From: an uncultured Mollicutes bacterium
GTDB taxonomy: Bacteria; Bacillota_I; Bacilli_A; RF39; UBA660
Direction of reading: 5' to 3'
Assembly: GCA_900543055.1 (NCBI GenBank)
Contig: UQQI01000001.1
Location: 14,350-78,349 of the forward strand
DNA length: 64,000 nucleotides
The position numbers and the translations under genes were made by a program. This document shows positions 3,936 to 37,243 of this stretch, in pieces. The notes below the pieces were generated by a model that searched no databases, was not told where the DNA came from, and worked only from the letters and a program-made list of their open reading frames with translations. How positions within the stretch are numbered: position 1 is the first letter of the stretch; each line of letters opens with the position of its first letter.

Positions 3936-3964
3936 TTTACAATAAAATTTTTAAATGCTATATT
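3936..3964 (+). promoter_or_regulatory. Sigma-A-type promoter, TTTACA-N17-TATATT, driving the WXG100-like operon
   Basis: -35 TTTACA at 3936-3941, 17-nt spacer, -10 TATATT at 3959-3964. Lies about 75 nt upstream of ATG 4041. Confidence 0.5.
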
Positions 3965-4040
3965 CAAATTGTAACAGGGTAAGGTTTTCTTGCGAGTGTT
4001 ATATATAATTTTAGTTTTATCGAAAGGTGGTGTTCATTTA

Positions 4041-4331
4041 ATGAACGGAGTAAGTCAAGATAGTGAAGCACTAAGACAAGATGCTAACTATATTAATGAA
4101 ATGGCAGAAACATTTAAAAGTCAATATGAACAATTATTTCAAGAAATGGAAGCAAATTTGAGTGCAGATGCAAATGAAAGTATTGCATGGTGGGGACCTC
4201 AAGCAGGGTTATTTTTAAATAACTTTAATAAGAAAAAAGAGGATTTTAATAATGCATATAAAAATGTAACAAGTATGGCAACAAATCTAGAAGAACAAGC
4301 ACAAGCTTGGGATACTTTTGAAAACGCTTAG
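4041..4331 (+). CDS. WXG100 (ESAT-6-like) family small helical protein, 96 aa
   Basis: RBS AAAGGTGG precedes ATG 4041 (the ORF track start at 3990 is less likely). About 100 aa, predicted helix-turn-helix with a central SIAWWGPQAG motif matching the WXG hairpin motif of T7SS substrates such as S. aureus EsxA (ANWEGQA). Confidence 0.6.
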   Translation: MNGVSQDSEALRQDANYINEMAETFKSQYEQLFQEMEANLSADANESIAWWGPQAGLFLNNFNKKKEDFNNAYKNVTSMATNLEEQAQAWDTFENA

Positions 4332-4348
4332 TATATAGGAGGAAAAAA

Positions 4349-4660
4349 ATGGCAACTAAATCAGGAATGAATTATGATAAGGTAGAAAAACTTATCGAAT
4401 ATTTAGATTCACAAAAGACATCTATTATCAATAATTTAACAGACTTAAGTAATGAAGCTCCATCTAAAATTGCAGCTCATTATTCTGGACAAGCAGCGGA
4501 AACATATAAGAATACATTAACTAATGTTATTACTAAAATAACTGAAACATTAGATACAATGATTGCTGAACTTAAAACAAATACACAACAAAAACAAGAC
4601 GATTATGCTGCACAAGATGCTAAGTTGCAAGACTCAGCAGATGTTGGTATTTCTGCTTAA
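4349..4660 (+). CDS. Second WXG100-like small helical protein (YxG variant), 103 aa
   Basis: RBS GGAGGA precedes ATG 4349, tightly coupled to the upstream gene. Central HYSGQAAE motif sits where a WXG motif would. All-helical, low-complexity composition typical of EsxB/Lap-like partners. Confidence 0.5.
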   Translation: MATKSGMNYDKVEKLIEYLDSQKTSIINNLTDLSNEAPSKIAAHYSGQAAETYKNTLTNVITKITETLDTMIAELKTNTQQKQDDYAAQDAKLQDSADVGISA

Positions 4661-4670
4661 TAGGAAATTA

Positions 4671-4736
4671 TAAGAAATTCATAGTAATTTCTTATTAGTG
4701 TGGGTTAATTATACTTAGCCCTTACTAATAAGAAAT
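4671..4736 (+). promoter_or_regulatory. Intergenic stem-loop with a duplicated left arm, giving alternative pairings, between the second WXG-like gene and the 276-aa gene
   Basis: Perfect 9-bp stem TAAGAAATT (4671-4679) / AATTTCTTA (4686-4694) with a 6-nt loop. A second copy of TAAGAAATT at 4728-4736 could compete for the same right arm. A longer alternative pairing is CTTATTAGTG (4691-4700) / TACTAATAAG. Confidence 0.4.
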
Positions 4737-4751
4737 TAAAGAGGTGATAAT

Positions 4752-5582
4752 ATGAATGTAGCAGAAGATCAAATGCTAGATATAGATGATGTTATTAATG
4801 AGACATGTCCACTAACAGAATATACTTTATACGCAACAGAAATTAGTAAATCAAACATAGGAACTATAAATTCATTAAAAGACATATTTAACGGAGAAGG
4901 AACTTTACCTAGTCAAACAACATCAATATTAGATGAGATAGATCCAACATTAAGTAAAACTAACTCTCAAAGATTCTATAGTGGTCAAACTGCACAAACT
5001 CAAATAACTAATGTTTCAGAAACTTCAGAACATTTACAAAATTTAAAATCATCCGTAGATAGTATTAATGTTGATGCAATATCAGCTACAATTGATTCAT
5101 ATAATGAGCATTTATCTAACTTAAAAAGAGATAGTAGAAAAAAATTGCTAGAAACTGCAGCAGACGCTTTTAATGAAAAAAAAGTTGAATGGGAAGGCTT
5201 TCCAAAAACAAAAACATATAAAACGGATGGGGATATATCCTATGTTGGACCAATATATGATGATGAGTTTAATAATTGTAATGAAACAGATACTGAAATT
5301 TATGAATATGATGTTGTTGAGAGTAGTTCTACTCCTGAAGACATTAAGGATAATAATGGTATGGTTATGTCAACAATTTATCATAATTCAATAACTTATA
5401 AAATTCACAAGTATAAACGAATCAAATACTGGAATTACTTTAAAATAATTAATTCACCAAAGGATCCAACTTTTGAACAAATTGAACAATTATTTAATAA
5501 AGTTGGTGAACCTTTACCATATGATCCTAGTAAAATTAATGGAGATGTAGGAAAAGCTAATGAATGGGGAATTAATTGGTAG
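4752..5582 (+). CDS. 276-aa hypothetical protein whose N-terminal helical region carries a WXG-like YSGQTAQ motif and an LXG-like L-x-D-x-F-x-G-x-G stretch; putative T7SS substrate or effector
   Basis: RBS AAGAGGTGA precedes ATG 4752. LKDIFNGEGT (residues about 42-51) resembles the LXG-domain motif of B. subtilis YeeF (LSDSEFSGKGA). RFYSGQTAQTQ repeats the YSGQ motif of the preceding gene. No signal peptide. Confidence 0.45.
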   Translation: MNVAEDQMLDIDDVINETCPLTEYTLYATEISKSNIGTINSLKDIFNGEGTLPSQTTSILDEIDPTLSKTNSQRFYSGQTAQTQITNVSETSEHLQNLKSSVDSINVDAISATIDSYNEHLSNLKRDSRKKLLETAADAFNEKKVEWEGFPKTKTYKTDGDISYVGPIYDDEFNNCNETDTEIYEYDVVESSSTPEDIKDNNGMVMSTIYHNSITYKIHKYKRIKYWNYFKIINSPKDPTFEQIEQLFNKVGEPLPYDPSKINGDVGKANEWGINW

Positions 5583-5597
5583 GACAGGAGAGAAAGT

Positions 5598-7355
5598 ATG
5601 AGTAATAGAACATATAATGAAGATGAATTAAATAGATTAGTAGAAAATTCATCAAAAATATCTCAAAATTTAGAAGCAATTTCAAACGACACAACATCAT
5701 ATTACGATAAAATCGACTCTAGAATTCTTAGAAAATTTAGTGATACCTTTTCTCAAATAAATAATTATAATGGGAAAATACAAGATGATATAGATAACAT
5801 AGATACATATGGAAATTGGTTAAGTCAAACATTAGACGATTATACAGGAACACGTAATAATGTAGAAGGCATGACTCCGGACTTAAGTGACATCAGTGCA
5901 GATGTTGGAGATACATCATTAGGAGAAGGAGATGCATCATTAAAAGACTTATCTTCAATTTCATCTATTATAGAATCTACAGTTGGTGGATTAGGCTCTG
6001 CAGATAAAGCAGAACAATTTCCTCTTGATCCAGAGGCTTGGAAAAATTTATCTGGATCAGAAAAAGAAGTAATTGTAAAAAAATTAAAAGAACTAGGATT
6101 TACAGATGAAGAAATAAATAATATTAAAGACGGAAAAGTTTCAGTTGATAAAGTTAAGTTAGAAGAACTAGCAAGTCAACTTGAAAAATTATATAAATTA
6201 GATCCAAGCATAAGACAAAAATTAAAAGATTTGTATGGATTTGATATTTTTAATGATGATGGAACAGTAAACAAAGAAAAATTAGCAATCGCTATGCTTA
6301 TGGATGCTAAAAATCCAAACGACCAATATGATTTAAAAAAACTACTAACAAAATTAAATGCTAGTACATCAACAGGTAATAGTAGTAATAAGAGTACAAC
6401 TGGTAATGTAACAAAGGTAGTTGCAAATGATATAGGTGGTTCTAGTCAAACAACTAGTACAATAGCAGGAGCAGCTGCAGGACTTGGAGCAACAGTTGCT
6501 GCAGTTGGAGGAACTACTTCGAAAGCTACAGGATTAGCAGCTAGTGCAGAAGAAGAGGCACTTGCAGGAGATAAATCATCAGACTCATCAAATGCTTCTA
6601 GTAAAAATTCAAGTCTTTTGGACGGATTAAAATCAGAAATGAATCATGTAATAAACAGTATAAAACCATCAGGAAACATTTCTACAAAACAAGGAAATGC
6701 CGCTATTATTGCAGGAGCAGGTCTTGGAACAGTATCACTAGCAGGTGGAGGAATAATGGCTGGTAAGAAAATTATGATGTTAGTATTCAAACCAGAACAT
6801 TTTACAAATTTATCTGAAGTCATAAAAGATACACTTTTAAATACTTTTAAAGCATTAAAATTTACGGAAGAAGAATTAGATTTATTTATGACATCAAATT
6901 TGAAGATAAAAGCATCACTAATTGATGATATAATTACAGCAATTAAGAAAGCTAGTGAATTAGATCCTGAATTAAATTCAAAAATAAAGCAAGTTTATAA
7001 TTTTAGTGTGTTTACAGAAAGTAATAAAATTAGTAAATATTTAATATTAATGATAATGTTAATTGATGGAAAGAAAATTGGTGACCAATATAATATCTAT
7101 GATATATTAAATCCAATATTAGCAGAAACTGATTATGTAAATTACACATATCAAGGTGTATCTTTACAAGATATTGTAGTAAAGGAAAAAGAAGAAAAGA
7201 AAGAATCAGATAAACAACAAAAAGAAGAAGCAAAACAACCAGAAATAAATGCTAATAAAGAAGAAATTTTAGATGAAAACGAAGATAGTAAAACATCAAC
7301 TACAAGTACATCTTCAGTAGAATCATGGCTAAAAGAAATGGGAATTGACTCATAA
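5598..7355 (+). CDS. 585-aa hypothetical protein: helical N-domain, two homologous ~100-aa repeat domains flanking a Gly/Ala/Ser/Thr-rich glycine-zipper region, and a Lys/Glu-rich tail
   Basis: RBS GGAGAGAAAG precedes ATG 5598. Internal repeats at residues about 150-255 and 400-510 share LDP…K.K..Y.F..F…L.I.ML.D.K…DQY. Glycine-zipper (GxxxG) runs IAGAAAGLGATVAAVGG and AAIIAGAGLGTVSLAGGGIMAG lie between them. The C-terminal tail is KEKEEKKESDKQQKEEAK. Confidence 0.6.
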   Translation: MSNRTYNEDELNRLVENSSKISQNLEAISNDTTSYYDKIDSRILRKFSDTFSQINNYNGKIQDDIDNIDTYGNWLSQTLDDYTGTRNNVEGMTPDLSDISADVGDTSLGEGDASLKDLSSISSIIESTVGGLGSADKAEQFPLDPEAWKNLSGSEKEVIVKKLKELGFTDEEINNIKDGKVSVDKVKLEELASQLEKLYKLDPSIRQKLKDLYGFDIFNDDGTVNKEKLAIAMLMDAKNPNDQYDLKKLLTKLNASTSTGNSSNKSTTGNVTKVVANDIGGSSQTTSTIAGAAAGLGATVAAVGGTTSKATGLAASAEEEALAGDKSSDSSNASSKNSSLLDGLKSEMNHVINSIKPSGNISTKQGNAAIIAGAGLGTVSLAGGGIMAGKKIMMLVFKPEHFTNLSEVIKDTLLNTFKALKFTEEELDLFMTSNLKIKASLIDDIITAIKKASELDPELNSKIKQVYNFSVFTESNKISKYLILMIMLIDGKKIGDQYNIYDILNPILAETDYVNYTYQGVSLQDIVVKEKEEKKESDKQQKEEAKQPEINANKEEILDENEDSKTSTTSTSSVESWLKEMGIDS

Positions 7356-7368
7356 ATCAAAATTAAAG

Positions 7369-7396
7369 GAAATACAAAAAAGTATTTCTTTTTTTC
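7369..7396 (+). terminator. Rho-independent terminator closing the four-gene operon
   Basis: Stem GAAATAC/GTATTTC with an AAAAAA loop, followed by a run of seven T. Confidence 0.55.
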
Positions 7397-9630: not shown

Positions 9631-10729
9631 ATGGAACTAAAAGAACAAAGAAAATCACTTGAAATAAATTTAGAAACAATAACTAACTTATGGAGGTCAC
9701 TTTGACATCGATACAAAAATAAAGAAAATAGAAGAACTTCAAAAACAGACAGAAAACCTTAATTTTTGGAATGACCGCGAAAATGCTGAAAAAGTACTAA
9801 GAGAATTAAATGATTTAAAAGATACAGTCAATAAAGTATCATCTATAAAAGAAGATATAAATAGTAACTTAGAAGTAATAAATCTACTTGAATTAGAAGA
9901 AGATAATGACTTATATAATGAAGTTATATTAAATTCAGAAAAAATAAATAAAGAAACAGAAGAATTAAATAAATTATTACTTTTAAGTGGGCCATATGAT
10001 AAAAATGATTGTATTTTAGAAATACATCCTGGAGCTGGTGGTACAGAGTCATGCGATTGGGCTAATATGCTATATAGAATGTATACAAGATACTGTGAAA
10101 ATCATAATTACAAAATAACAATACTTGATTACCAAGCAGGTGATGAAGCGGGGATAAAAAGTGTATCTCTATTAATAAAAGGTATAAATGCTTATGGTTA
10201 TTTAAAAAATGAAAAAGGGGTTCACAGACTTGTAAGATTATCACCTTTTGACTCTAACAATAGAAGACATACATCATTTGCATCAGTAGAAGTTACACCA
10301 GATATTGATAAAGATGTTGATGTAGAAATAGATGATAAAGATTTAAAAATTGATGTATATCGTTCAACAGGAGCAGGAGGGCAAGGAGTAAATACAACAG
10401 ACTCAGCAGTAAGAATTACACATTTACCAACAAAGATTGTAGTTACATGTCAAAATGAACGAAGCCAAATTCAAAATAAAGAACAAGCAATGAGAGTGTT
10501 AAAAAATAAGTTATTGTTATTAAAAATGGAAGAGCAAGAACAAGAATTAAATAAAATTAAGGGAGAACAAATGAATATAAACTTTGGCTCTCAAATAAGA
10601 AGTTACGTAATGCATCCATATTCAATGGTAAAGGATCACAGAACAAATAAAGAAACAAGCAATGTTTCAAAAGTACTAGATGGAGATATAGACGAATTTA
10701 TAGAAGAAAATTTAAAAAAGGGGCTATAA
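9631..10729 (+). CDS. prfB: Peptide chain release factor 2, with a programmed +1 ribosomal frameshift at CTT TGA C (TGA at 9703-9705)
   Basis: ORF0 (ATG 9631, MELKEQRKSLEINLETITNLWRSL) ends at an in-frame TGA that is preceded by the internal SD-like GGAGG and the canonical CUU UGA C slippery site. The +1 frame continues (DIDTKIKKIEELQ…) into the RF2 C-terminal ORF with the GGQ motif (RSTGAGGQGVNTTDSAVRITHLPT). Confidence 0.9.
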
Positions 10730-31754: not shown

Positions 31755-32927
31755 ATGAAAACAATAAAAGATATAGATTTAAATGAAAAAAAAGTATTAA
31801 TAAGATGCGATTTTAATGTACCAATTAAAGATGGAAAAATAGTAGACGACACAAGAATAGAAGGTGCCCTACCTACAATAAAATATGCTATTGAACATAA
31901 TGCAAAAGTAATATTATTATCACATCTTGGAAGAGTTAAAGGACAAGAAGATTTAGAAAAAAATGACTTATCACCAGTTGCAGAATGTTTATCAAAAAAA
32001 TTAGAAAAAGATGTATTATTTAGTGAAAATACAAGAGGAGAAGAGTTAGAAGCAACAATAGATAGTATGTTACCAGGTGATGTGTTACTTATTCAAAATA
32101 CAAGATATGAAGATTTAAATGGGAAGAAAGAAAGTAAAAACGACCCTGAATTAGGAAGATATTGGGCCTCTTTAGGAGACGTGTTTGTAAATGATGCTTT
32201 TGGAACTGTCCATAGAGCTCATGCTTCTAATGTAGGAATTTCATCAAATATGGAATCATGTATTGGATTCTTAATAGAAAAGGAATTAAAAGCACTTAGT
32301 ATTTTAGAAGAGCCAACTCATCCTTTTGTTGTAATATTAGGTGGAGCCAAAGTATCAGATAAAATCGGTGTAATTGAAAATTTATTAACAAAAGCAGATA
32401 AAATATTAATAGGCGGAGGAATGGCATTTACATTCTTAAAAGCAAAAGGTTATGAAATTGGAAAATCATTGTTAGATGAAGAAAATATAGACTTTTGTAA
32501 AAAAATGTTAGAAAAATATTCTGAAAAAATAGAATTACCAGTAGACTTTGCTGTGACTAATGAATTTACAAATGAAGAAGACTATAGAGTAAAAATGGCT
32601 GATGAAATAACAAAAGATGAAATGGGCTTAGACATTGGTGAAAAAACAGTAGAAAAATATGAAAATATATTAAAAGATGCTTCAATTGTTATATGGAATG
32701 GACCTCTTGGAGTATATGAATTTGATAAATACAAAAAGAATACAGATGTATTATTAAAATACGTAGTTGAAAACAATATAAAAACAATTTTAGGTGGAGG
32801 AGACATTGTTGCAGCTGCAAGTAATGCAGGTTATAAAGATAAAGTATATCATGCATCTACTGGAGGAGGAGCAACACTTGAATATTTAGAGGGAAAAGAA
32901 TTACCAGGAATAGAAGCAATTAAGTAG
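31755..32927 (+). CDS. pgk: Phosphoglycerate kinase
   Basis: MKTIKDIDL…RCDFNVP N-terminus. 390 aa. Conserved PGK motifs. Confidence 0.95.
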   Translation: MKTIKDIDLNEKKVLIRCDFNVPIKDGKIVDDTRIEGALPTIKYAIEHNAKVILLSHLGRVKGQEDLEKNDLSPVAECLSKKLEKDVLFSENTRGEELEATIDSMLPGDVLLIQNTRYEDLNGKKESKNDPELGRYWASLGDVFVNDAFGTVHRAHASNVGISSNMESCIGFLIEKELKALSILEEPTHPFVVILGGAKVSDKIGVIENLLTKADKILIGGGMAFTFLKAKGYEIGKSLLDEENIDFCKKMLEKYSEKIELPVDFAVTNEFTNEEDYRVKMADEITKDEMGLDIGEKTVEKYENILKDASIVIWNGPLGVYEFDKYKKNTDVLLKYVVENNIKTILGGGDIVAAASNAGYKDKVYHASTGGGATLEYLEGKELPGIEAIK

Positions 32928-33434
32928 GTGAGAAGGTTGAATAGTGAGAGACTATTTTTAGTAGATCCATATGATGAAGATCATATGAAATTAGTAGAAG
33001 ATTTTGAAAAAGAAAACGAAATTCATACTATGACTGTAGAAAATGCAAAGAAAATACAACAAGTCCCAAGAGAAGAATATGAACAACATAAAAAACTTTC
33101 AAATGAAGTAAGAGAATCTTTATTTTTAGAATCTTCTTCTAAAATAAAAGATATATGCTACATTGAAGGAGAAAGAGATATAAAAACATGTAATATTTCT
33201 TTTCCTCCAATAAAAACAAAATTAAAAAACAGAAGATTAATTTCACTTGCTACAGATTATTCAATTCATACACTAGGAATGAAAGAAATATTCATAAAAA
33301 CAGCATCAAATGATAGAAATATGATAGAAAATCTAGAAGCAAAAGGCTTCGAAAGTCTAGGTGAAGAAAAAGGAAATGTTATATATTTAAAAGAAACAGA
33401 AGATACTTTAAACAATCAAAGGAAACTAGCATGA
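32928..33434 (+). CDS. Hypothetical cytosolic protein (about 165 aa), start uncertain (GTG 32928 or TTG 32937)
   Basis: Protein-like ORF inserted between pgk and tpiA. No motif recognised. Confidence 0.35.
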   Translation: MRRLNSERLFLVDPYDEDHMKLVEDFEKENEIHTMTVENAKKIQQVPREEYEQHKKLSNEVRESLFLESSSKIKDICYIEGERDIKTCNISFPPIKTKLKNRRLISLATDYSIHTLGMKEIFIKTASNDRNMIENLEAKGFESLGEEKGNVIYLKETEDTLNNQRKLA

Positions 33435-34429
33435 ATATATTAAAAGAAATAAAGAAAAATACACTAGTTTTATTGTTAATTACAATAATTGTATTATATG
33501 TAATATTAAAAGATGATTGGTTAAACATATCAAAAGCATTGACAACAATGGATGTAAAATATTTAATATTAGCTGTTATAGTATTTTTAATATCTGTTTC
33601 ATTAAAGGGAATAGCTAATTACTTAATTGTAAATGATAAGAAAAAAATCAGTGTAAAGGAAGCAATTAAACATAATTTCATAACACAATTTTTTAACGGA
33701 ATTACACCATTCTCAACAGGTGGACAACCTATGGAAATATATATGCTTACAGAACATGGTATTTCCTTACCAAAAGCCACAAACTATACAGTCCAAAGCT
33801 TTATCTTTTATCAAATTGCCTTAGTAATATGTGGAGCACTTGCTGTGACTTATAACTTTATATTTAAAATATTTCCTAAAGTAACATTCTTAAAGTACCT
33901 GGTATTATTGGGATTTGCTATAAACATATTTGTAGTAGTAATATTACTTTTAGTAGCAAATTCAAAAAAAACAACACAAAAGTTAAGTAATCTATGCAAA
34001 AAATCTTGCAAAAAATTAAAGATAAACGGAAAAGATGAAGAGATAGAAACTAAATTTGAAGATTTATATAACGGATTTAAAGAATTGTCAAAAAATAAAA
34101 AGTTATCCATAATTGGTATTTTCTTAAATATTTTAAGTTTGGGATTCTTATATTTAATACCTTTATTTGTTTTGTTTAGTATGGGTGACTTTACAAGTCT
34201 AAATATTGCAGACACAATAACTGCATCAGCCTATATCTATTTAATCGGAGCATTTGTTCCAATTCCAGGAGCAAGTGGTGGCATAGAATATGGATTTACT
34301 CAATTTTATGGTAATTTCATAAAAACAGGAACATTATCTGCAGTTTTATTGATTTGGCGCTTTATAACATATTATTTAGGTGTTATAATAGGTGCATTAA
34401 TTTTCAGTTTGGAAAAGAAGGTGAAATAA
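33431..34429 (+). CDS. Polytopic membrane protein, UPF0104/lysylphosphatidylglycerol-synthase-TM (flippase-like) family
   Basis: 332 aa, about 8 TM helices, basic-residue-rich loops. Translationally coupled (TAATG) to the downstream GT4 gene, a recurrent glycolipid-synthesis pairing. Confidence 0.45.
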   Translation: MNILKEIKKNTLVLLLITIIVLYVILKDDWLNISKALTTMDVKYLILAVIVFLISVSLKGIANYLIVNDKKKISVKEAIKHNFITQFFNGITPFSTGGQPMEIYMLTEHGISLPKATNYTVQSFIFYQIALVICGALAVTYNFIFKIFPKVTFLKYLVLLGFAINIFVVVILLLVANSKKTTQKLSNLCKKSCKKLKINGKDEEIETKFEDLYNGFKELSKNKKLSIIGIFLNILSLGFLYLIPLFVLFSMGDFTSLNIADTITASAYIYLIGAFVPIPGASGGIEYGFTQFYGNFIKTGTLSAVLLIWRFITYYLGVIIGALIFSLEKKVK

Positions 34430-35664
34430 TGCGTATTGGTATATTTTCAGAAACATATACTCCATATATTAGCGGTTTAGTTACAAGCGAAGTTATGCTA
34501 AAAAAAGCCTTAGAAAAACAAGGTCATGATGTATATGTAGTAACAGCTAACATTGAAAGTTTTAAATATGAATATGATGAAAAAGAAAAAATATTAAGAA
34601 TACCAGGACTACCAACTGGAATATATGATTCAAGACTAACTAGTATTTATCCAGTAAAAGCAGTTAAAAAAATTAGAAGTTGGAATTTAGATGTTATACA
34701 TTCACAAACAGAGTTTGCAATAGGAACATTCGCAAGATTAATTGCTAAACAATATAATATTCCATTAGTTCATACCTATCATACAATGTATGAAGATTAT
34801 ATTCATTACATAACAAAAGGTTATTTTCAAAAATCAAGTAAAAAATTATTAGAATACTTTACAAAGTTTTATTGTGATACAACTGCAACAGAATTAATCG
34901 TACCAACAACAAAAACTTATAAATTATTTACAGAAAAGTATAAATTTGAAAAAAATATTCACATAATTCCAACTGGAATTGAAGTAGAAAGATTCTTTAA
35001 GGAAAATATAAAAGAAGATGATGTAAGCGATTTAAGAAAACGCCTAAAATTAAATAAAAAAGACTTTATAATATTATTTGTAGGAAGATTGGCAGAAGAA
35101 AAAAACGTTGAATTTTTAATTTATGCACAACAGGAACTAGTAAAAAAATCTAAAAATATAAAATTAATAATTGTAGGTGACGGTCCAGATAAAGAAAAAT
35201 ATGAAAAATTAAGTAATAAACTTGGATTATCCGATAACATTATTTTTACAGGAAAGGCCGCTTGGGATGATATGCCATACTACTACCATATATCAAATGT
35301 ATTTGCTACAGCATCAAAAACAGAGACACAAGGTCTAACAATAATAGAAGCAATGGCGTCAAATGTTGTACCAGTTTGTATGAATGATGAAGCATTCCAA
35401 AGCATGGTAACAGAAGAATTAAATGGATTATTCTTTGAAACAAAGGAAGAATATGAAAAAAATATTATTAGATTATATGAAAATCCAAAGGAACTACAAA
35501 GATTTGATAAACAGGCAAGAATTCAGGCAGAACATTATAGCTCTAAAAATTATGCTGATAGAGTTATAGAAGTATATAATAGAGCAATCAAAGAAAAACA
35601 AGAAGAAAATAGATTTGGAGTTTTCTCAAAAATATATAAAAGTATTAAAAAGAGGTTTAAATGA
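34429..35664 (+). CDS. GT4 (GT-B) glycosyltransferase, diacylglycerol glycosyltransferase-like
   Basis: N-terminal MRIGIFSETYTPYISG, typical of MGS/GT4 lipid glycosyltransferases. E-x7-E region (TETQGLTIIEAMAS). 411 aa. Confidence 0.65.
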   Translation: MRIGIFSETYTPYISGLVTSEVMLKKALEKQGHDVYVVTANIESFKYEYDEKEKILRIPGLPTGIYDSRLTSIYPVKAVKKIRSWNLDVIHSQTEFAIGTFARLIAKQYNIPLVHTYHTMYEDYIHYITKGYFQKSSKKLLEYFTKFYCDTTATELIVPTTKTYKLFTEKYKFEKNIHIIPTGIEVERFFKENIKEDDVSDLRKRLKLNKKDFIILFVGRLAEEKNVEFLIYAQQELVKKSKNIKLIIVGDGPDKEKYEKLSNKLGLSDNIIFTGKAAWDDMPYYYHISNVFATASKTETQGLTIIEAMASNVVPVCMNDEAFQSMVTEELNGLFFETKEEYEKNIIRLYENPKELQRFDKQARIQAEHYSSKNYADRVIEVYNRAIKEKQEENRFGVFSKIYKSIKKRFK

Positions 35665-36365
35665 TAATAGCATTAAATAACAAGTCAAATTTAGAAAAAA
35701 ATAGATTTAGAGAATATCAAAAAGAACTTTCAACAATAAATACGTTTAACAAAATGATTGTGTGTCCCACTTTTTTGAATATAAGCAACTATAATTTAAA
35801 TAATTTTTCATTAGGGGCTCAAAATGTAAGTATTAATGATAATGGAGCATATACTGGTGAAATATCAGCAAGTCAATTAAAATCATTTGGTGTAGAATAT
35901 GCAATAGTAGGACACAGTGAAAGAAGACAATACCAAAAAGAGACAAATGACGAAATAAATAAAAAAGTAAACAACTTATTAGAAAATGATATTATTCCAA
36001 TATTATGTATTGGAGAAACTAGAGAAGAAAGAGAATCAGGAAAAGTTAAAGAGGTGTTAATCAAAGAATTACTAACAGCAGTTGAAAATGTCAATGATGA
36101 AGATAAAGAAAAAATAATTATTGCATATGAGCCAATTTGGGCAATTGGAACAGGGATAATTCCAACCAATAGTGAAATAGAGGAAGTTTTTCAATTAATT
36201 AAAAAAAATTTTCCCAAAAATAAGGTACTCTATGGAGGAAGTGCAAATGAAAAAAACATAGATATCTTAAATCAGTGCAAAATAATAGATGGTTATTTAT
36301 TAGGTGGAATAAGTCTAAAACCAGATAAATTAAAAATATTTCTTTCGAAACTAGAAAATAGGTAA
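35661..36365 (+). CDS. tpiA: Triosephosphate isomerase
   Basis: Catalytic N-x-K (LNNKSN), GHSERR, AYEPIWAIGTG. 234 aa. Confidence 0.85.
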   Translation: MIIALNNKSNLEKNRFREYQKELSTINTFNKMIVCPTFLNISNYNLNNFSLGAQNVSINDNGAYTGEISASQLKSFGVEYAIVGHSERRQYQKETNDEINKKVNNLLENDIIPILCIGETREERESGKVKEVLIKELLTAVENVNDEDKEKIIIAYEPIWAIGTGIIPTNSEIEEVFQLIKKNFPKNKVLYGGSANEKNIDILNQCKIIDGYLLGGISLKPDKLKIFLSKLENR

Positions 36366-36377
36366 GTTTTAAGAATC

Positions 36378-36400
36378 GACAAAACTTGTCTATTTTTTTT
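36378..36400 (+). terminator. Weak terminator after tpiA
   Basis: GACAA-AAC-TTGTC stem followed by TATTTTTTTT. Confidence 0.35.
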
Positions 36401-36466
36401 CTTTATCTTTTTAATTCGATAGTATATAATTAAGATACGTGGTAAAAAGAATAAAGAGGAGAAATT

Positions 36467-37243
36467 ATGAATAAAATAAAATTATTAATTATTGATGATA
36501 ATAAAAATTTAGTAGATATGATAAGAGAGTACTTTAAAGATAATAAGAAAATATCAGTTAATTACGTAGCTGAAGATGGAAAGTATGGAATAGATATTAT
36601 TGATAAACATTCGGATAATATAGATATAATCTTACTAGATTTAGTAATGCCAAGAGTAGATGGGGTTGAAGTTTTAGAATATCTTAAGAAAAATAATATA
36701 AATAAAAAAATTATTGTTCTTACATCTTATAATACACAAGAAATGATTAGAAAAGTATCTGAACTTGGTGCTTGTTACTACATATTGAAACCATTTGAAT
36801 TAAGTCATCTAAAAGCAAAAATAGAAAGTGTGTATGCTAGTCACAGTAATCCAAATGAAAGTGTTGACCTGTTTCAAAACAATTTACAAATCTCAATTTC
36901 AAAAACACTTCATGAACTTGGAGTTCCATCACATGTTAAAGGATATCAATATATTAGAGAAGGAATAACACTAGTATTTAAAAATCCAGAATATATAGGT
37001 GGAATAACAAAAGAATTATATCCAGCAATTGCAAAAACATTTGATTCAACTGCATCTCGTGTAGAAAGAGCAATTAGACATGCAATTGACATTAGTTGGA
37101 CAAGAGCAAATTGGGATTATATGGTAGAATTATTTGGATACACAATAGACATAGAAGGTGCAAAACCGACAAATTCAGAGTTTATAGTAACAATAGCAGA
37201 CAAACTAAGATTAGAATATAACACTCCAATAAGACAATCATAA
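36467..37243 (+). CDS. spo0A: Stage 0 sporulation protein A (response regulator with a Spo0A-C DNA-binding domain)
   Basis: Receiver domain (LIIDDN…LLDLVMP) plus the characteristic Spo0A C-terminal domain (ISKTLHELGVPSHVKGYQYIREGI…TASRVERAIRHAI). Confidence 0.85.
   Translation: MNKIKLLIIDDNKNLVDMIREYFKDNKKISVNYVAEDGKYGIDIIDKHSDNIDIILLDLVMPRVDGVEVLEYLKKNNINKKIIVLTSYNTQEMIRKVSELGACYYILKPFELSHLKAKIESVYASHSNPNESVDLFQNNLQISISKTLHELGVPSHVKGYQYIREGITLVFKNPEYIGGITKELYPAIAKTFDSTASRVERAIRHAIDISWTRANWDYMVELFGYTIDIEGAKPTNSEFIVTIADKLRLEYNTPIRQS

Follow-up and report, generated by a model that had tools for sequence, protein, structure and literature searches.

A conserved four-gene cassette of uncultured gut Bacilli encodes WXG100-like proteins and a repeat protein, a candidate cargo set for a type VII secretion system encoded elsewhere

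Results

The window, the 64-kb stretch of DNA analyzed here, carries four co-oriented genes, as an earlier note on this DNA had described; all features given below lie on the forward strand. The first two genes encode WXG100-like proteins: g1 (4041–4331; 96 aa) has a conserved A-W-[WFYS]-G-P turn, and g2 (4349–4660; 103 aa) combines a turn of the form Y-[ST]-G-x-A-A with a Y-x-x-x-D/E motif in its C-terminal part. They are followed by the lineage-restricted g3 (4752–5582; 276 aa) and by g4 (5598–7355; 585 aa), in which a predicted hairpin, repeat modules and a hydrophobic stretch are combined. The intergenic spacers are 17 nt (g1-g2), 91 nt (g2-g3) and 15 nt (g3-g4) long. The start of g1 was placed at the ATG behind the ribosome-binding site AAAGGTGGTG (4023–4032); the mechanical ORF list begins at a TTG at 3990. 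The motifs quoted in the earlier note were all found: AWWGPQAG in g1, HYSGQAAE in g2, and FYSGQTAQ and LKDIFNGEG in g3. So were the flanks it had named, nfnAB and a tRNA-thiolation pair, as nfnAB-like genes lie upstream of the operon and a cysteine desulfurase and a TtcA-like gene lie downstream. Because the GC content of the operon is 28.9%, compared with 28.0% in the window, no compositional anomaly is apparent.

A promoter-like site at 3936–3964 consists of a −35 TTTACA, a 17-nt spacer and a TG-extended −10 TATATT (score 10/12). Taken by itself, the match carries little weight, because shuffled sequence is expected to give just as many such sites as the region has. Support for it comes, instead, from conservation: the −35, the TG-extended −10 and the leader are kept 5' of g1 across loci with unrelated upstream genes. 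Hence, the site is the cassette's own candidate promoter and appears to travel with it. The sequence of the leader segment (3970–4003) is conserved, and a weak hairpin is predicted; evidence for structure is, however, weak (12 pairs in RNAalifold, only two with compensatory changes, −5.8 kcal/mol). At the other end of the operon, an intrinsic-terminator-like hairpin with a T-run (7365–7396; 11-bp stem at 7365–7392) upholds the terminator that had been proposed: its dG is −9.4 kcal/mol (z −4.3), and none of 200 shuffles folded equally well. The scanner overlooked it because the stem is AT-rich, with fewer than three G-C pairs. The operon described in the earlier note, with four genes between a promoter-like site and a terminator-like hairpin, is thereby confirmed as real.

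The spacer between g2 and g3 harbors an RNA element (4672–4738) made of a 23-bp hairpin (4685–4738; dG −28.8 kcal/mol, z −5.5) and an upstream AAGAAATT at 4672–4679 that can form an alternative pairing with the 5' arm. The hairpin has no U-tract and is followed by the g3 ribosome-binding site (4739–4747). Each of the 11 loci that were folded has a hairpin here, and RNAalifold gave 23 pairs, seven of them with compensatory changes. The sequence of the arm is conserved across genera and occurs nowhere but at that site; an Rfam scan gave no family match. The element probably sets different levels for the small and the large proteins.

In direct family scans, g1 matched Pfam WXG100 with an E-value of 0.049 and NCBIfam ESAT6_2 with 0.001, while g2 matched Pfam WXG100 with 3e-5 (24.6 bits; cut-off 27.3) and NCBIfam WXG100_ESAT6 (TIGR03930) with 1e-5. 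Both proteins stay under the Pfam and NCBIfam curated cut-offs. Their family profiles, however, consistently match solved EsxA/ESAT-6 structures over the full length: that of g1 matches EsxA of S. aureus (E 2e-3) and Geobacillus (E 8e-3), and that of g2 matches EsxA of T. curvata (E 5e-5) and S. aureus (E 1e-4). Comparison of g1 with g2 by hhalign gave a probability of 66%. In the family alignments, g1 retains the W-x-G-P turn, and the Y-x-x-x-D/E motif of g2 (YAAQD, aa 86–90) is kept in nine of 10 cassette homologues. Altogether, these similarities support the view, already held in the earlier note, that g1 and g2 are WXG100-superfamily hairpin proteins. Of the family matches which that note had anticipated among the four proteins, WXG100 similarity was found (g1 and g2), while the Pfam and NCBIfam scans matched none of the four to LXG, DUF3130 (Lap1) or DUF3958 (Lap2).

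The g3 protein comprises a helical region (aa 34–143), a long beta-hairpin (aa 182–222) and a conserved LPYD near the C-terminus. An L-x-D-x-F-x-G-x-G stretch in g3 had been likened to the LXG motif; this assignment was not supported, as the motif is not conserved among g3 homologues. Furthermore, the g3 family profile matched neither WXG100, LXG nor solved structures, and profile comparison detected no relation to any T7SS family. In g3-like proteins of other species, the helical core is conserved and lies C-terminally, behind N-terminal extensions that vary and can reach ~650 aa; g3 of the window has neither an extension nor a recognizable enzymatic domain. Because g3 lies invariably directly 5' of g4 and is duplicated jointly with it (a second, short g3'-g4' pair is found in L012 and L013), g3 is probably a cognate partner of g4, either a co-substrate or a chaperone.

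The g4 protein opens with a predicted helical hairpin (5598–5873; aa 1–92; AF2 pLDDT 83–91) with invariant D40, R42 and W74, in line with the helical N-domain described earlier. The hairpin is EsxA-sized (~90 aa) and appears to be weakly related to g2 (62% probability by hhalign) and to the LXG domain of TelA (8GMH; profile E 4.8e-4). However, none of the 57 g4-family members scanned matches LXG in Pfam. Two copies of a module of ~110 aa follow, one at 6018–6359 (aa 141–254; KLKELGFTDEEI ... YGFDIFNxDGTxNxxKL ... DxYDL; jackhmmer E 4e-49) and a divergent one at 6786–7112 (aa 397–505; jackhmmer E 2.5e-30), both with a pLDDT of ~90 in AF2. Relatives of g4 carry from zero to six copies. The module matched no Pfam family, its sole PDB match was a 26-aa HhH-like stretch of topoisomerase V, and structure comparison found no neighbors. 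It is a novel helical module.

Between the module copies lies a Gly/Ala-rich hydrophobic stretch (6699–6767; aa 368–390; AAIIAGAGLGTVSLAGGGIMAGKK) with K/R residues after it. Its Kyte-Doolittle value is 1.61 over 19 aa. Across the g4 family, the stretch has a median G+A fraction of 0.48, 72 of 107 members contain GxxxG, and the mean K/R count is 3.1 after the stretch versus 1.6 before it. AF2 did not build it as a helix. The stretch could serve as a membrane segment or a glycine zipper; in the g4 subfamily of the window, the same module flanks it on both sides, and a simple N-out/C-in topology fits poorly with this arrangement. The linkers of g4 are of low complexity and rich in S/T/P/G/N, a composition common in extracytoplasmic stalks. 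The protein ends in SWLKEMGIDS, with a W-L-x-x-x-G-I motif (7326–7346) whose W577, L578 and G582 are near-invariant in the subfamily alignment; the pattern is present in 51 of 107 family members, and in the other subfamily the motif is longer (DWLYGLGIGLAAAG). A signal-peptide-like hydrophobic N-terminus was found in only one of 143 g4-family representatives, a 145-aa fragment; this fragment apart, the family has no Sec signal peptide. By these features, g4 looks less like a classical LXG toxin than like an undescribed repeat protein with a putative membrane segment.

The order g1-g2-g3-g4 is common to more than 25 loci of uncultured gut Bacilli ("Mollicutes/Tenericutes" MAGs), among them L003, L004/5, L007, L009–L013, L015, L016 and ~15 metagenome loci. 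Different genera carry it as a single copy in synteny, and the chromosomal neighborhoods in which it occurs are of at least four kinds. The cassette is a real conserved unit and appears to be vertically inherited. Comparison with a 94%-identical relative gave dN/dS values of 0.06–0.25 (0.06 for g1), which marks the operon genes as true coding sequences that are subject to purifying selection. Across genera, the cassette proteins share 29–42% identity, compared with 51–90% for the neighbor genes (65–90% except PcsB). They are fast-evolving yet constrained, as expected for exported proteins.

In none of the four neighborhood types does a membrane immunity gene lie behind g4, which extends to homologs what the earlier note had stated for the window. 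The effector-island picture drawn there is, however, doubtful. [quoted passage not shown] A polymorphic toxin is disfavored because no immunity gene is found and the cassette appears to be vertically inherited.

No T7SS core gene, EssC included, was found in the 64 kb: the largest ORF does not exceed 937 aa, and phmmer searches of the window with lineage EssC, YukD-like and accessory queries returned nothing at E ≤ 1. ORF sizes and phmmer thus agree with the claim that ess core genes are missing from the window. In relatives, the picture is different. The L016 cassette is located 3.5 kb upstream of an EssC cluster that comprises a 101-aa gene, a WXG100 gene scoring above the Pfam cut-off (28.9 bits), a 163-aa gene, a 1518-aa EssC (FHA and FtsK_SpoIIIE, E 5e-41) and an 83-aa gene. 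The layout is the same in L049, L050 and L051 (~3.5 kb between cassette and cluster); L016, L049 and L051 hold a separate EssC-adjacent WXG pair in addition to the cassette. In L039, a T7SS-associated coiled-coil gene lies directly 5' of a WXG pair and a g4-like gene. In L016, L020 and L021, the WXG100 genes adjoining EssC are homologous to g2 (E 1e-24 to 1e-28).

The lineage contains ~95 EssC clusters with 58–70% identity. These loci are minimal: EssC is accompanied by a coiled-coil gene, a YukD-like gene of 83 aa and a single variable gene, and some loci, such as L017, have no adjoining WXG100 gene. Most cassette loci have no EssC within 10 kb. The abundant EssC P0310 comes from a species other than that of the window. 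The suggestion of an orphan module serviced by a distant T7SS fits these relatives, given the linkage in L016 and L049–L051 and the g2 homologues beside EssC.

Discussion

We favor the view, with a probability of roughly 0.55, that the cassette is a self-contained cargo set for an EssC-type (type VIIb-like) secretion system encoded at another place in the chromosome. Candidate T7SS substrates are nearly always found beside one or two small WXG100-related genes (PMC11217815), and Lap proteins, which have a WXG100-like fold, bind a helical targeting domain (PMC9600955, PMC10801868). In this view, g1 and g2 would pair with each other and with the N-terminal hairpin of g4, possibly also with the helical part of g3; g1 would contribute the W-x-G turn and g2 the Y-x-x-x-D/E "export arm", and EssC would recognize the resulting helical bundle. 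The cargo would be g4, with its hairpin followed by low-complexity linkers, helical modules and the hydrophobic stretch with its lysines. A T7SS route is suggested by the lack of a Sec signal peptide in the g4 family. The most economical reading is that the N-terminal part of g4 is exported and that the hydrophobic stretch then anchors the protein in the producer's membrane or enters another one. We infer complex formation, export, topology and module function from these features. Observations that count against this reading are the lack of EssC in the window and the different species origin of P0310, the sub-cut-off scores of g1 and g2, the absence of EssC within 10 kb in most loci, a g3 that has no detectable T7SS relatives, and a hydrophobic stretch that has modules on both sides and is not modeled as a helix by AF2.

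An unlikely alternative is that g4 is an antibacterial, membrane-permeabilizing T7SS toxin of the TelE/TspA type, with a helical targeting domain and a glycine-zipper segment; it would be exported with the help of g1 and g2 as Lap-like targeting factors, and g3 would stabilize or neutralize it. The WXG/LXG-like hairpin with its weak match to TelA LXG, the Gly/Ala-rich stretch with frequent GxxxG, and the fast evolution of the cassette proteins would suit such a toxin, as would a small-small-accessory-large order like that of the telE operon (bioRxiv 10.64898/2026.03.12.711312). However, the known examples have adjoining immunity genes (TipE; DUF443/TsaI, PMC9600955), whereas the operon stops at its terminator with no membrane immunity gene 3' of g4. 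The toxin is also hard to reconcile with a single-copy, syntenic locus that is not a variable island, with a conserved cargo behind a variable N-terminal domain, with the absence of LXG matches in the family, and with dN/dS values below 0.3.

We find it about as improbable that secretion is not involved at all, and that the cassette encodes a cytoplasmic or membrane-associated helical complex (for instance, an envelope, division or stress scaffold) in which most of an anchored g4 would face the cytoplasm and the WXG100 likeness would reflect only a shared helical-hairpin fold. Housekeeping neighbors, seemingly vertical inheritance and the distance of most loci from EssC are compatible with this idea; so are the sub-threshold WXG100 scores, structural neighbors that are generic hairpins, and one module copy on the K/R-rich side, cytoplasmic by the positive-inside rule. 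It does not explain, however, why the cassette repeatedly adjoins EssC clusters in one clade, why EssC-adjacent WXG100 genes belong to the g2 family, or why the W-x-G and Y-x-x-x-D/E motifs are kept; divergence far faster than that of neighboring cytoplasmic proteins and stalk-like linkers also speak against it. Still less probable, in our opinion, is that the genes encode machine parts, with g1 and g2 as the central EsxA-type pair of a T7SS whose locus is split and g4 with g3 as a lineage-specific, membrane/wall-spanning replacement for EsaA/EssB-type proteins. Minimal EssC loci, such as L017 with no WXG100 gene, a core single-copy cassette, and the single hydrophobic segment and long linkers of g4, reminiscent of envelope-spanning components, would agree with that role. 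Yet L016, L049 and L051 already hold a WXG pair beside EssC, the number of g4 copies and modules varies oddly for a machine part (with g3'-g4' in L012/L013), and g4 opens with a substrate-like hairpin, not with a signal or an anchor.

As a putative cargo set, the cassette can be compared with several known systems. Like EsxA/EsxB (PF06013, TIGR03930), g1 and g2 form a tandem pair of ~100-aa proteins with full-length profile similarity, and g2 homologues adjoin EssC. The W-x-G turn is shared by g1, whereas g2 has Y-S-G; in addition, both proteins score under the cut-offs, and their genes lie apart from EssC and share an operon with those of two larger proteins. The earlier note had compared the gene order with that of Lap1-Lap2-LXG modules, and the order does agree: in Streptococcus intermedius TelA–D, Lap1/Lap2 (or Lap3/Lap4), two small helix-turn-helix proteins, are encoded 5' of a larger protein with a helical targeting N-terminus (PMC9600955, PMC10801868). 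One small partner has an export-arm-like motif in each case (Y-x-x-x-D/E in g2, FxxxD in Lap1), and the profile of the g4 N-terminus has a weak match to the LXG domain of TelA. The likeness fails, however, in the DUF3130, DUF3958 and LXG family matches, in the toxin domain and in the immunity gene; the LXG domain spans ~200 aa, compared with ~90 aa in the g4 hairpin, the cassette has an extra partner gene (g3), and its locus is core and syntenic, with a cargo more conserved than the N-terminal domain.

The membrane-active T7SSb effectors TelE (Streptococcus gallolyticus) and TspA (Staphylococcus aureus) resemble g4 in combining a helical targeting N-terminus with a glycine-rich hydrophobic C-terminal segment. 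The telE operon encodes two binders of the LXG domain (N-domain) and, as a third, one binder of the central region (bioRxiv 10.64898/2026.03.12.711312). TelE and TspA differ from g4 in their adjoining membrane immunity proteins (TipE; TsaI/DUF443, PMC9600955) and in lacking folded repeat modules. Some g3-like proteins recall, in layout alone, "reverse" T7SS substrates such as the lipase TslA (cited in PMC11217815), with a C-terminal helical core and N-terminal extensions; g3 of the window, unlike TslA, has no extension or recognizable enzymatic domain. The RefSeq-based survey of T7SS variants c–j (Garrett, Higginson and Palmer 2024, PMC11217815) names neither this uncultured gut Bacilli lineage, its minimal EssC locus, nor the g3 and g4 families. 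The lineage shares with those variants an EssC-type ATPase with FHA, a small YukD-like protein and WXG100 genes. Although the substrates proposed here are mostly unlinked from EssC, they resemble those of the c–j variants in being flanked by one or two small WXG100-related genes.

Gene Organization and Conservation

The four co-oriented open reading frames claimed at 3936-7396 are present in the ORF list. All lie on the forward strand: g1 (4041-4331; 96 aa, counted from the ATG behind AAAGGTGGTG), g2 (4349-4660; 103 aa), g3 (4752-5582; 276 aa) and g4 (5598-7355; 585 aa). The spacers measure 17 nt between g1 and g2, 91 nt between g2 and g3, and 15 nt between g3 and g4. On the same strand, a promoter-like site (3936-3964) is made of TTTACA and a TG-extended TATATT separated by 17 nt. 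Such sites are no more frequent in the region than expected from shuffling; the -35, the TG-extended -10 and part of the leader are conserved 5' of g1 despite the different upstream genes found among loci. The g1 leader (3966-4040), kept across these loci as TTGTAACAGGGTAAGG...TTTCTTGC..GTGTTATA, is predicted to form a weak hairpin with few compensatory changes. The terminator proposed behind g4 is supported by folding: a forward-strand hairpin at 7365-7396 has an AT-rich 11-bp stem followed by a T-run (dG -9.4 kcal/mol, z -4.3), and it was overlooked by the scanner because the latter demands three G-C pairs.

Comparison with a relative (the species representative CAKOZD01, 94% nucleotide identity) yielded dN/dS ratios of 0.06 for g1, 0.14 for g2, 0.21 for g3 and 0.25 for g4, with values of 0.02-0.13 in neighboring genes. 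Across genera, the g1-g4 proteins are 29-42% identical, compared with 51-90% for their neighbors (65-90% if PcsB is set aside). Because of these ratios and identities, we regard g1-g4 as genuine genes that evolve rapidly under constraint.

Iterative searches of the ORFs from all fetched loci (designated L003-L051) recovered the order g1-g2-g3-g4 in L003, L004/5, L007 (CAKOZD01), L009-L013, L015 and L016, as well as in around 15 metagenome contigs. The cassette resides in at least four different kinds of neighborhood: between nfnAB and ttcA-prfB (the window, L007, L011, L015, L023), between a two-component system and CmpB (L004, L010, L029), between an Rce1-like gene and rbfA-infB-nusA (L003, L012, L013, L042), and between pheT and nusB-xseAB (L016, L049, L051). 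A mobile-element origin was rejected, as there is no GC anomaly (28.9% in the cassette, 28.0% in the window) and no integrase nearby; the sole transposase/IS element near a cassette is found in L004, and it is missing from the sister locus L010. The prfB gene of the window (release factor 2; 9631-10729) shows a classical +1 programmed frameshift: its short ORF ends in CTT TGA C (9700-9706), and the +1 frame is open at 9704-10729.

In three loci a second pair, g3'-g4', lies directly upstream of g1 (L012, 6272-7890; L013, 6271-7904; L042, 5682-7312), which indicates that g3 and g4 act as cognate partners. The g4' protein, of about 297 aa and without the repeat module described below, consists of an N-terminal hairpin, a Gly/Ala-rich segment, an acidic linker and a second Gly/Ala-rich motif. 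This composition suggests that hairpin, Gly/Ala-rich segments and acidic linker make up the minimal core of the g4 family.

The exact g4 protein is present on human-gut-type metagenome scaffolds, and near-identical proteins come from MAGs labeled 'Bacilli bacterium' or 'Mollicutes bacterium' by NCBI. When species-representative genomes and metagenomes were scanned, the g4 module was restricted to uncultured Bacilli, 'Tenericutes', 'Mycoplasma', Erysipelotrichaceae and Bacillales MAGs and to gut or rumen-type metagenomes. The host has a cell wall, judging from the Spo0A, FtsEX/PcsB and LD-carboxypeptidase encoded in the window. The pgk, tpi and spo0A genes are found at 31755-37243; the occurrence of spo0A in MAGs labeled 'Mollicutes' or 'Tenericutes' indicates that such labels are loose for this lineage.

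Relatedness of g1 and g2 to WXG100 Proteins

The earlier note expected matches to WXG100, DUF3130, DUF3958 and LXG families. The first of these appeared below curated thresholds. For Pfam WXG100 (PF06013), g2 scored 24.6 bits (E 3e-5; cut-off 27.3) and g1 14.3 bits (E 0.049); for the NCBIfam model WXG100_ESAT6 (TIGR03930), g2 scored 25.7 bits (E 1e-5; cut-off 44.85), and g1 matched ESAT6_2 with an E value of 1e-3. The other expectations were not borne out: neither DUF3130/TIGR04197 (Lap1) nor DUF3958 (Lap2) matched g1 or g2 at E<=10 in Pfam and NCBIfam, and LXG (PF04740) matched neither g3 nor g4 at the same threshold, nor was it among the families matched by 57 members of the g4 family. Scans of g1-g4 against Pfam, NCBIfam, PHROGs and PADLOC returned nothing related to phages or defense, the sub-threshold WXG100 matches of g1 and g2 being the only ones.

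Family profiles gave full-length matches to solved structures. The g2 profile matched EsxA of T. curvata (5e-5), EsxA of S. aureus (1e-4) and ESAT-6 (9e-3), while the g1 profile matched EsxA of S. aureus (2e-3) and of Geobacillus (8e-3). The two families are also related to each other (hhalign probability, 66%). The turn A-W-[WFYS]-G-P of g1 is kept in 10/10 cassette homologues; in g2 the turn is Y-[ST]-G-x-A-A in place of W-x-G, so that only g1 carries the W-x-G turn. Near its C-terminus, g2 harbors a Y-x-x-x-D/E motif (YAAQD, aa 86-90), kept in nine of the ten cassette homologues. An export-arm motif of the same form has been discussed for T7SS substrates (PMC9600955, PMC10801868).

The g3 Protein

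An AlphaFold2 model of g3, built on 14 sequences, has a pLDDT of 80 and a pTM of 0.67 and shows helices at 34-143, a long beta-hairpin at 182-222 and a short C-terminal helix. No solved structure was matched by the g3 family profile, and fold searches returned no neighbor for the beta part. In profile comparisons, neither g2 (7.5%) nor the g4 N-domain (20%) was significantly related to g3. Homologues keep the FYSG segment. The stretch LKDIFNGEG, which had been likened to the LXG motif, lost support, as its conservation ends at close relatives.

The family is small, with only 18 clusters among 5.8 billion proteins. In other species, g3-like proteins bear long and variable N-terminal extensions, up to a total of 928 aa, and the conserved core stays C-terminal. 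In L033 (3009-5795, 928 aa) and L037 (3752-5470, 572 aa), the extension that precedes the core is rich in Thr, Asp and Gly and looks beta-structured.

Domain Structure of g4

The AlphaFold2 model of g4, computed from a 44-sequence alignment, contains an N-terminal hairpin (helices 8-38 and 48-92, pLDDT 83-91) and two all-helical copies of a module (aa 140-259 and 394-545, pLDDT around 90); the remaining linkers are disordered. In the N-domain family, D40, R42 and W74 are invariant and L-x-G is absent. The N-domain aligns with g2 (hhalign probability, 62%; BLAST of g2 against g4, E 0.004), and the 90-aa hairpin weakly matches residues 110-185 of the LXG domain of the effector TelA (8GMH; E 4.8e-4). 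In size, the hairpin is like EsxA and unlike an LXG domain, which spans about 200 aa.

The repeat module, of about 110 aa, is recognized by the signatures KLKELGFTDEEI and YGFDIFNxDGTxNxxKLAxAxLMDxKxxxDxYDL. Its copy number among g4 relatives ranges from 0 to 6. No Pfam family corresponds to it, fold searches revealed no structural neighbor, and Foldseek found no significant match in the PDB. The sole PDB match of the module, to an HhH-like part of topoisomerase V, spans just 26 residues and was discarded. Judged from the motif, its DxFNxDGTxN loop, which a helix follows, might be of the EF-hand or dockerin type. Scattered Pfam matches in the 57 g4-family members (e.g., CoaE in 7) were judged spurious, as they are short, helical and repeat-inflated. 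Throughout the family, which comprises 144 representatives at 50% identity, the C-terminal modules are conserved; they matched no toxin family.

Between the two modules lies a Gly-rich hydrophobic segment, AAIIAGAGLGTVSLAGGGIMAG / AAIIAGAGLGTVSLAGGGIMAGKK (aa 368-391). In 107 full-length members of the family, the segment of highest hydrophobicity has a median G+A fraction of 0.48, with GxxxG present in 72 of them; K and R residues average 3.1 after the segment and 1.6 before it. A hydrophobic, signal-peptide-like N-terminus was seen in 1/143 family representatives, and that one is a 145-aa fragment. The C-terminal end of g4 carries a conserved W-L-x-x-x-G-I motif, which in the other subfamily is extended to a second Gly/Ala-rich segment, DWLYGLGIGLAAAG.

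A Conserved Hairpin between g2 and g3

The spacer between g2 and g3 contains an RNA element on the forward strand (4672-4738) with a 23-bp hairpin at 4685-4738. The 101-nt region folds with a dG of -28.8 kcal/mol (z -5.5), each of the 11 loci folded has a hairpin here, and RNAalifold predicted 23 pairs, 7 of them with compensatory changes. The hairpin arm TAATTTCTTATTAGT was found at the g2-g3 site only, and it is kept across genera though the flanking proteins are just 30-40% identical. Upstream of the hairpin, AAGAAATT provides an alternative pairing partner for the 5' arm. No U-tract follows the stem, and no Rfam family was matched. The element probably determines how much of the small proteins is made relative to the large ones, and it could serve as an RNase III target, as a protein-binding site or as a translational switch.

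Association with EssC

The window lacks ess core genes, as the earlier note had stated: queries with EssC (the T7SS ATPase), YukD-like and accessory proteins of the lineage had no match within its 64 kb, and no ORF is longer than 937 aa. The connection comes from relatives. In L016, an EssC cluster lies 3.5 kb downstream of the cassette, beyond nusB-xseA-xseB, and consists, in this order, of a 101-aa gene, a WXG100 gene, a 163-aa coiled-coil gene, a 1518-aa EssC (FHA and FtsK_SpoIIIE domains, E 5e-41), an 83-aa gene and a 394-aa gene. The WXG100 gene is a homologue of g2 and, at 28.9 bits, scores above the Pfam cut-off. Cassette and EssC also share one contig in L049, L050 and L051, arranged as in L016. 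After iteration, the WXG100 genes adjoining EssC in L016, L020 and L021 were all found to be g2 homologues (E 1e-24 to 1e-28). In L039, the coiled-coil gene stands immediately before a WXG pair that is accompanied by a g4-like gene.

EssC homologues with 58-70% identity fall into about 95 clusters; NCBI names one of these EssC. Their loci in this lineage are small and embedded among housekeeping genes. Minimal EssC loci occur within housekeeping operons in L017-L019 (8271-14837) and L021 (8692-16294); in one example, dnaJ-rsmE is followed by a 384-aa gene, a 124-aa gene, EssC, an 83-aa gene and then serS-fmt. Identity of the 83-aa protein between species is 58-73%, and no Pfam family matches it at E<=0.01. 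In L016, EssB, EsaA and EssA families were not recognizable at the same threshold.

The abundant EssC cluster of L017-L019 (P0310) was considered as the machine of the window's own species and rejected. The window has pgk, tpi and spo0A genes of its own, at identities of only 52%, 32% and 61%, which places the cluster in a different species. The further EssC loci examined all come from other species, and none from that of the window. Large ORFs beside g4-like genes in L036 and L041 turned out to encode GH94/glucoamylase-type proteins, not EssC. The Erysipelotrichaceae locus L014 was uninformative.

A large T7SS locus was observed in L020 (7058-21650; GCA_947629115.1). It encodes four proteins of 394-429 aa that share a C-terminal helical domain (ASTT..P..EN) and whose N-terminal halves look esterase- or lipase-like by eye; pairs of helical proteins (about 207-230 aa and 119-128 aa) are also present, and the locus ends in an 83-aa YukD-like gene and a WXG pair. 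The locus may be one of 'reverse' TslA-type substrates with Lap-like partners.

Discussion

The reading that we favor, with a probability of roughly 55%, is that the cassette is a T7SS substrate cassette usually unlinked from the genes of the machine. In such an arrangement, g1 and g2 would be WXG100-type partners, g4 would be the cargo, endowed with an EsxA-like targeting hairpin, and g3 would act as the cognate partner of g4. Candidate T7SS substrates generally have one or two small WXG100-related genes beside them (PMC11217815). The substrate-cassette reading agrees with this pattern and with the Lap-LXG bundle model (PMC9600955, PMC10801868).

What kind of cargo g4 might be is a different question, and the classical picture of a toxin is a poor match: an immunity gene is lacking, the locus is a core, syntenic one, and it is the cargo that is conserved and the N-domain that varies. 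The terminator comes straight after g4, before any downstream gene, and the genes beyond are unrelated housekeeping genes in the four contexts, none of them conserved. This arrangement bears upon the idea that g4 is a membrane-active protein akin to the glycine-zipper toxins TelE and TspA, with which it shares a Gly-rich hydrophobic segment. Those toxins are, however, encoded alongside a cognate membrane immunity protein that is absent at g4 loci, and we deem a role of this sort improbable. Somewhat better placed, though still less likely than not, is the proposal that the cassette represents the core, vertically inherited, non-toxin cargo of a minimal T7SS in small-genome gut Bacilli. Here g4 would be a surface protein devoid of signal peptide: its glycine-rich segment would anchor it in the membrane of the producer, its N-terminal part (the EsxA-like hairpin and the novel, possibly Ca-binding modules) would be exported, and the g2-g3 hairpin would govern stoichiometry. 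A self-anchored surface protein exported by the T7SS may be the most interesting option still standing, and if true it would constitute a route to build the cell surface not described for Bacillota. In the g4 subfamily of the window, modules lie both before and after the hydrophobic stretch, a feature that none of the readings considered here accounts for.

Whatever the function, three protein families without an entry in Pfam, NCBIfam or the literature (g3, the g4 N-domain and the 110-aa module) are described, together with a conserved RNA element. The substrate-cassette reading also illustrates that 'orphan' WXG100 operons distant from essC can be tied to a secretion system via relatives. 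As these observations concern uncultured organisms, their practical value is bounded.

The T7SS of Bacillota is known mainly for EsxA-type proteins and for polymorphic LXG toxins with immunity genes. [quoted passage not shown] It would add a different class of cargo that is conserved and immunity-less, combines a membrane segment with repeat modules, travels with a private WXG100 pair, and is carried by abundant uncultured bacteria of the human and animal gut.
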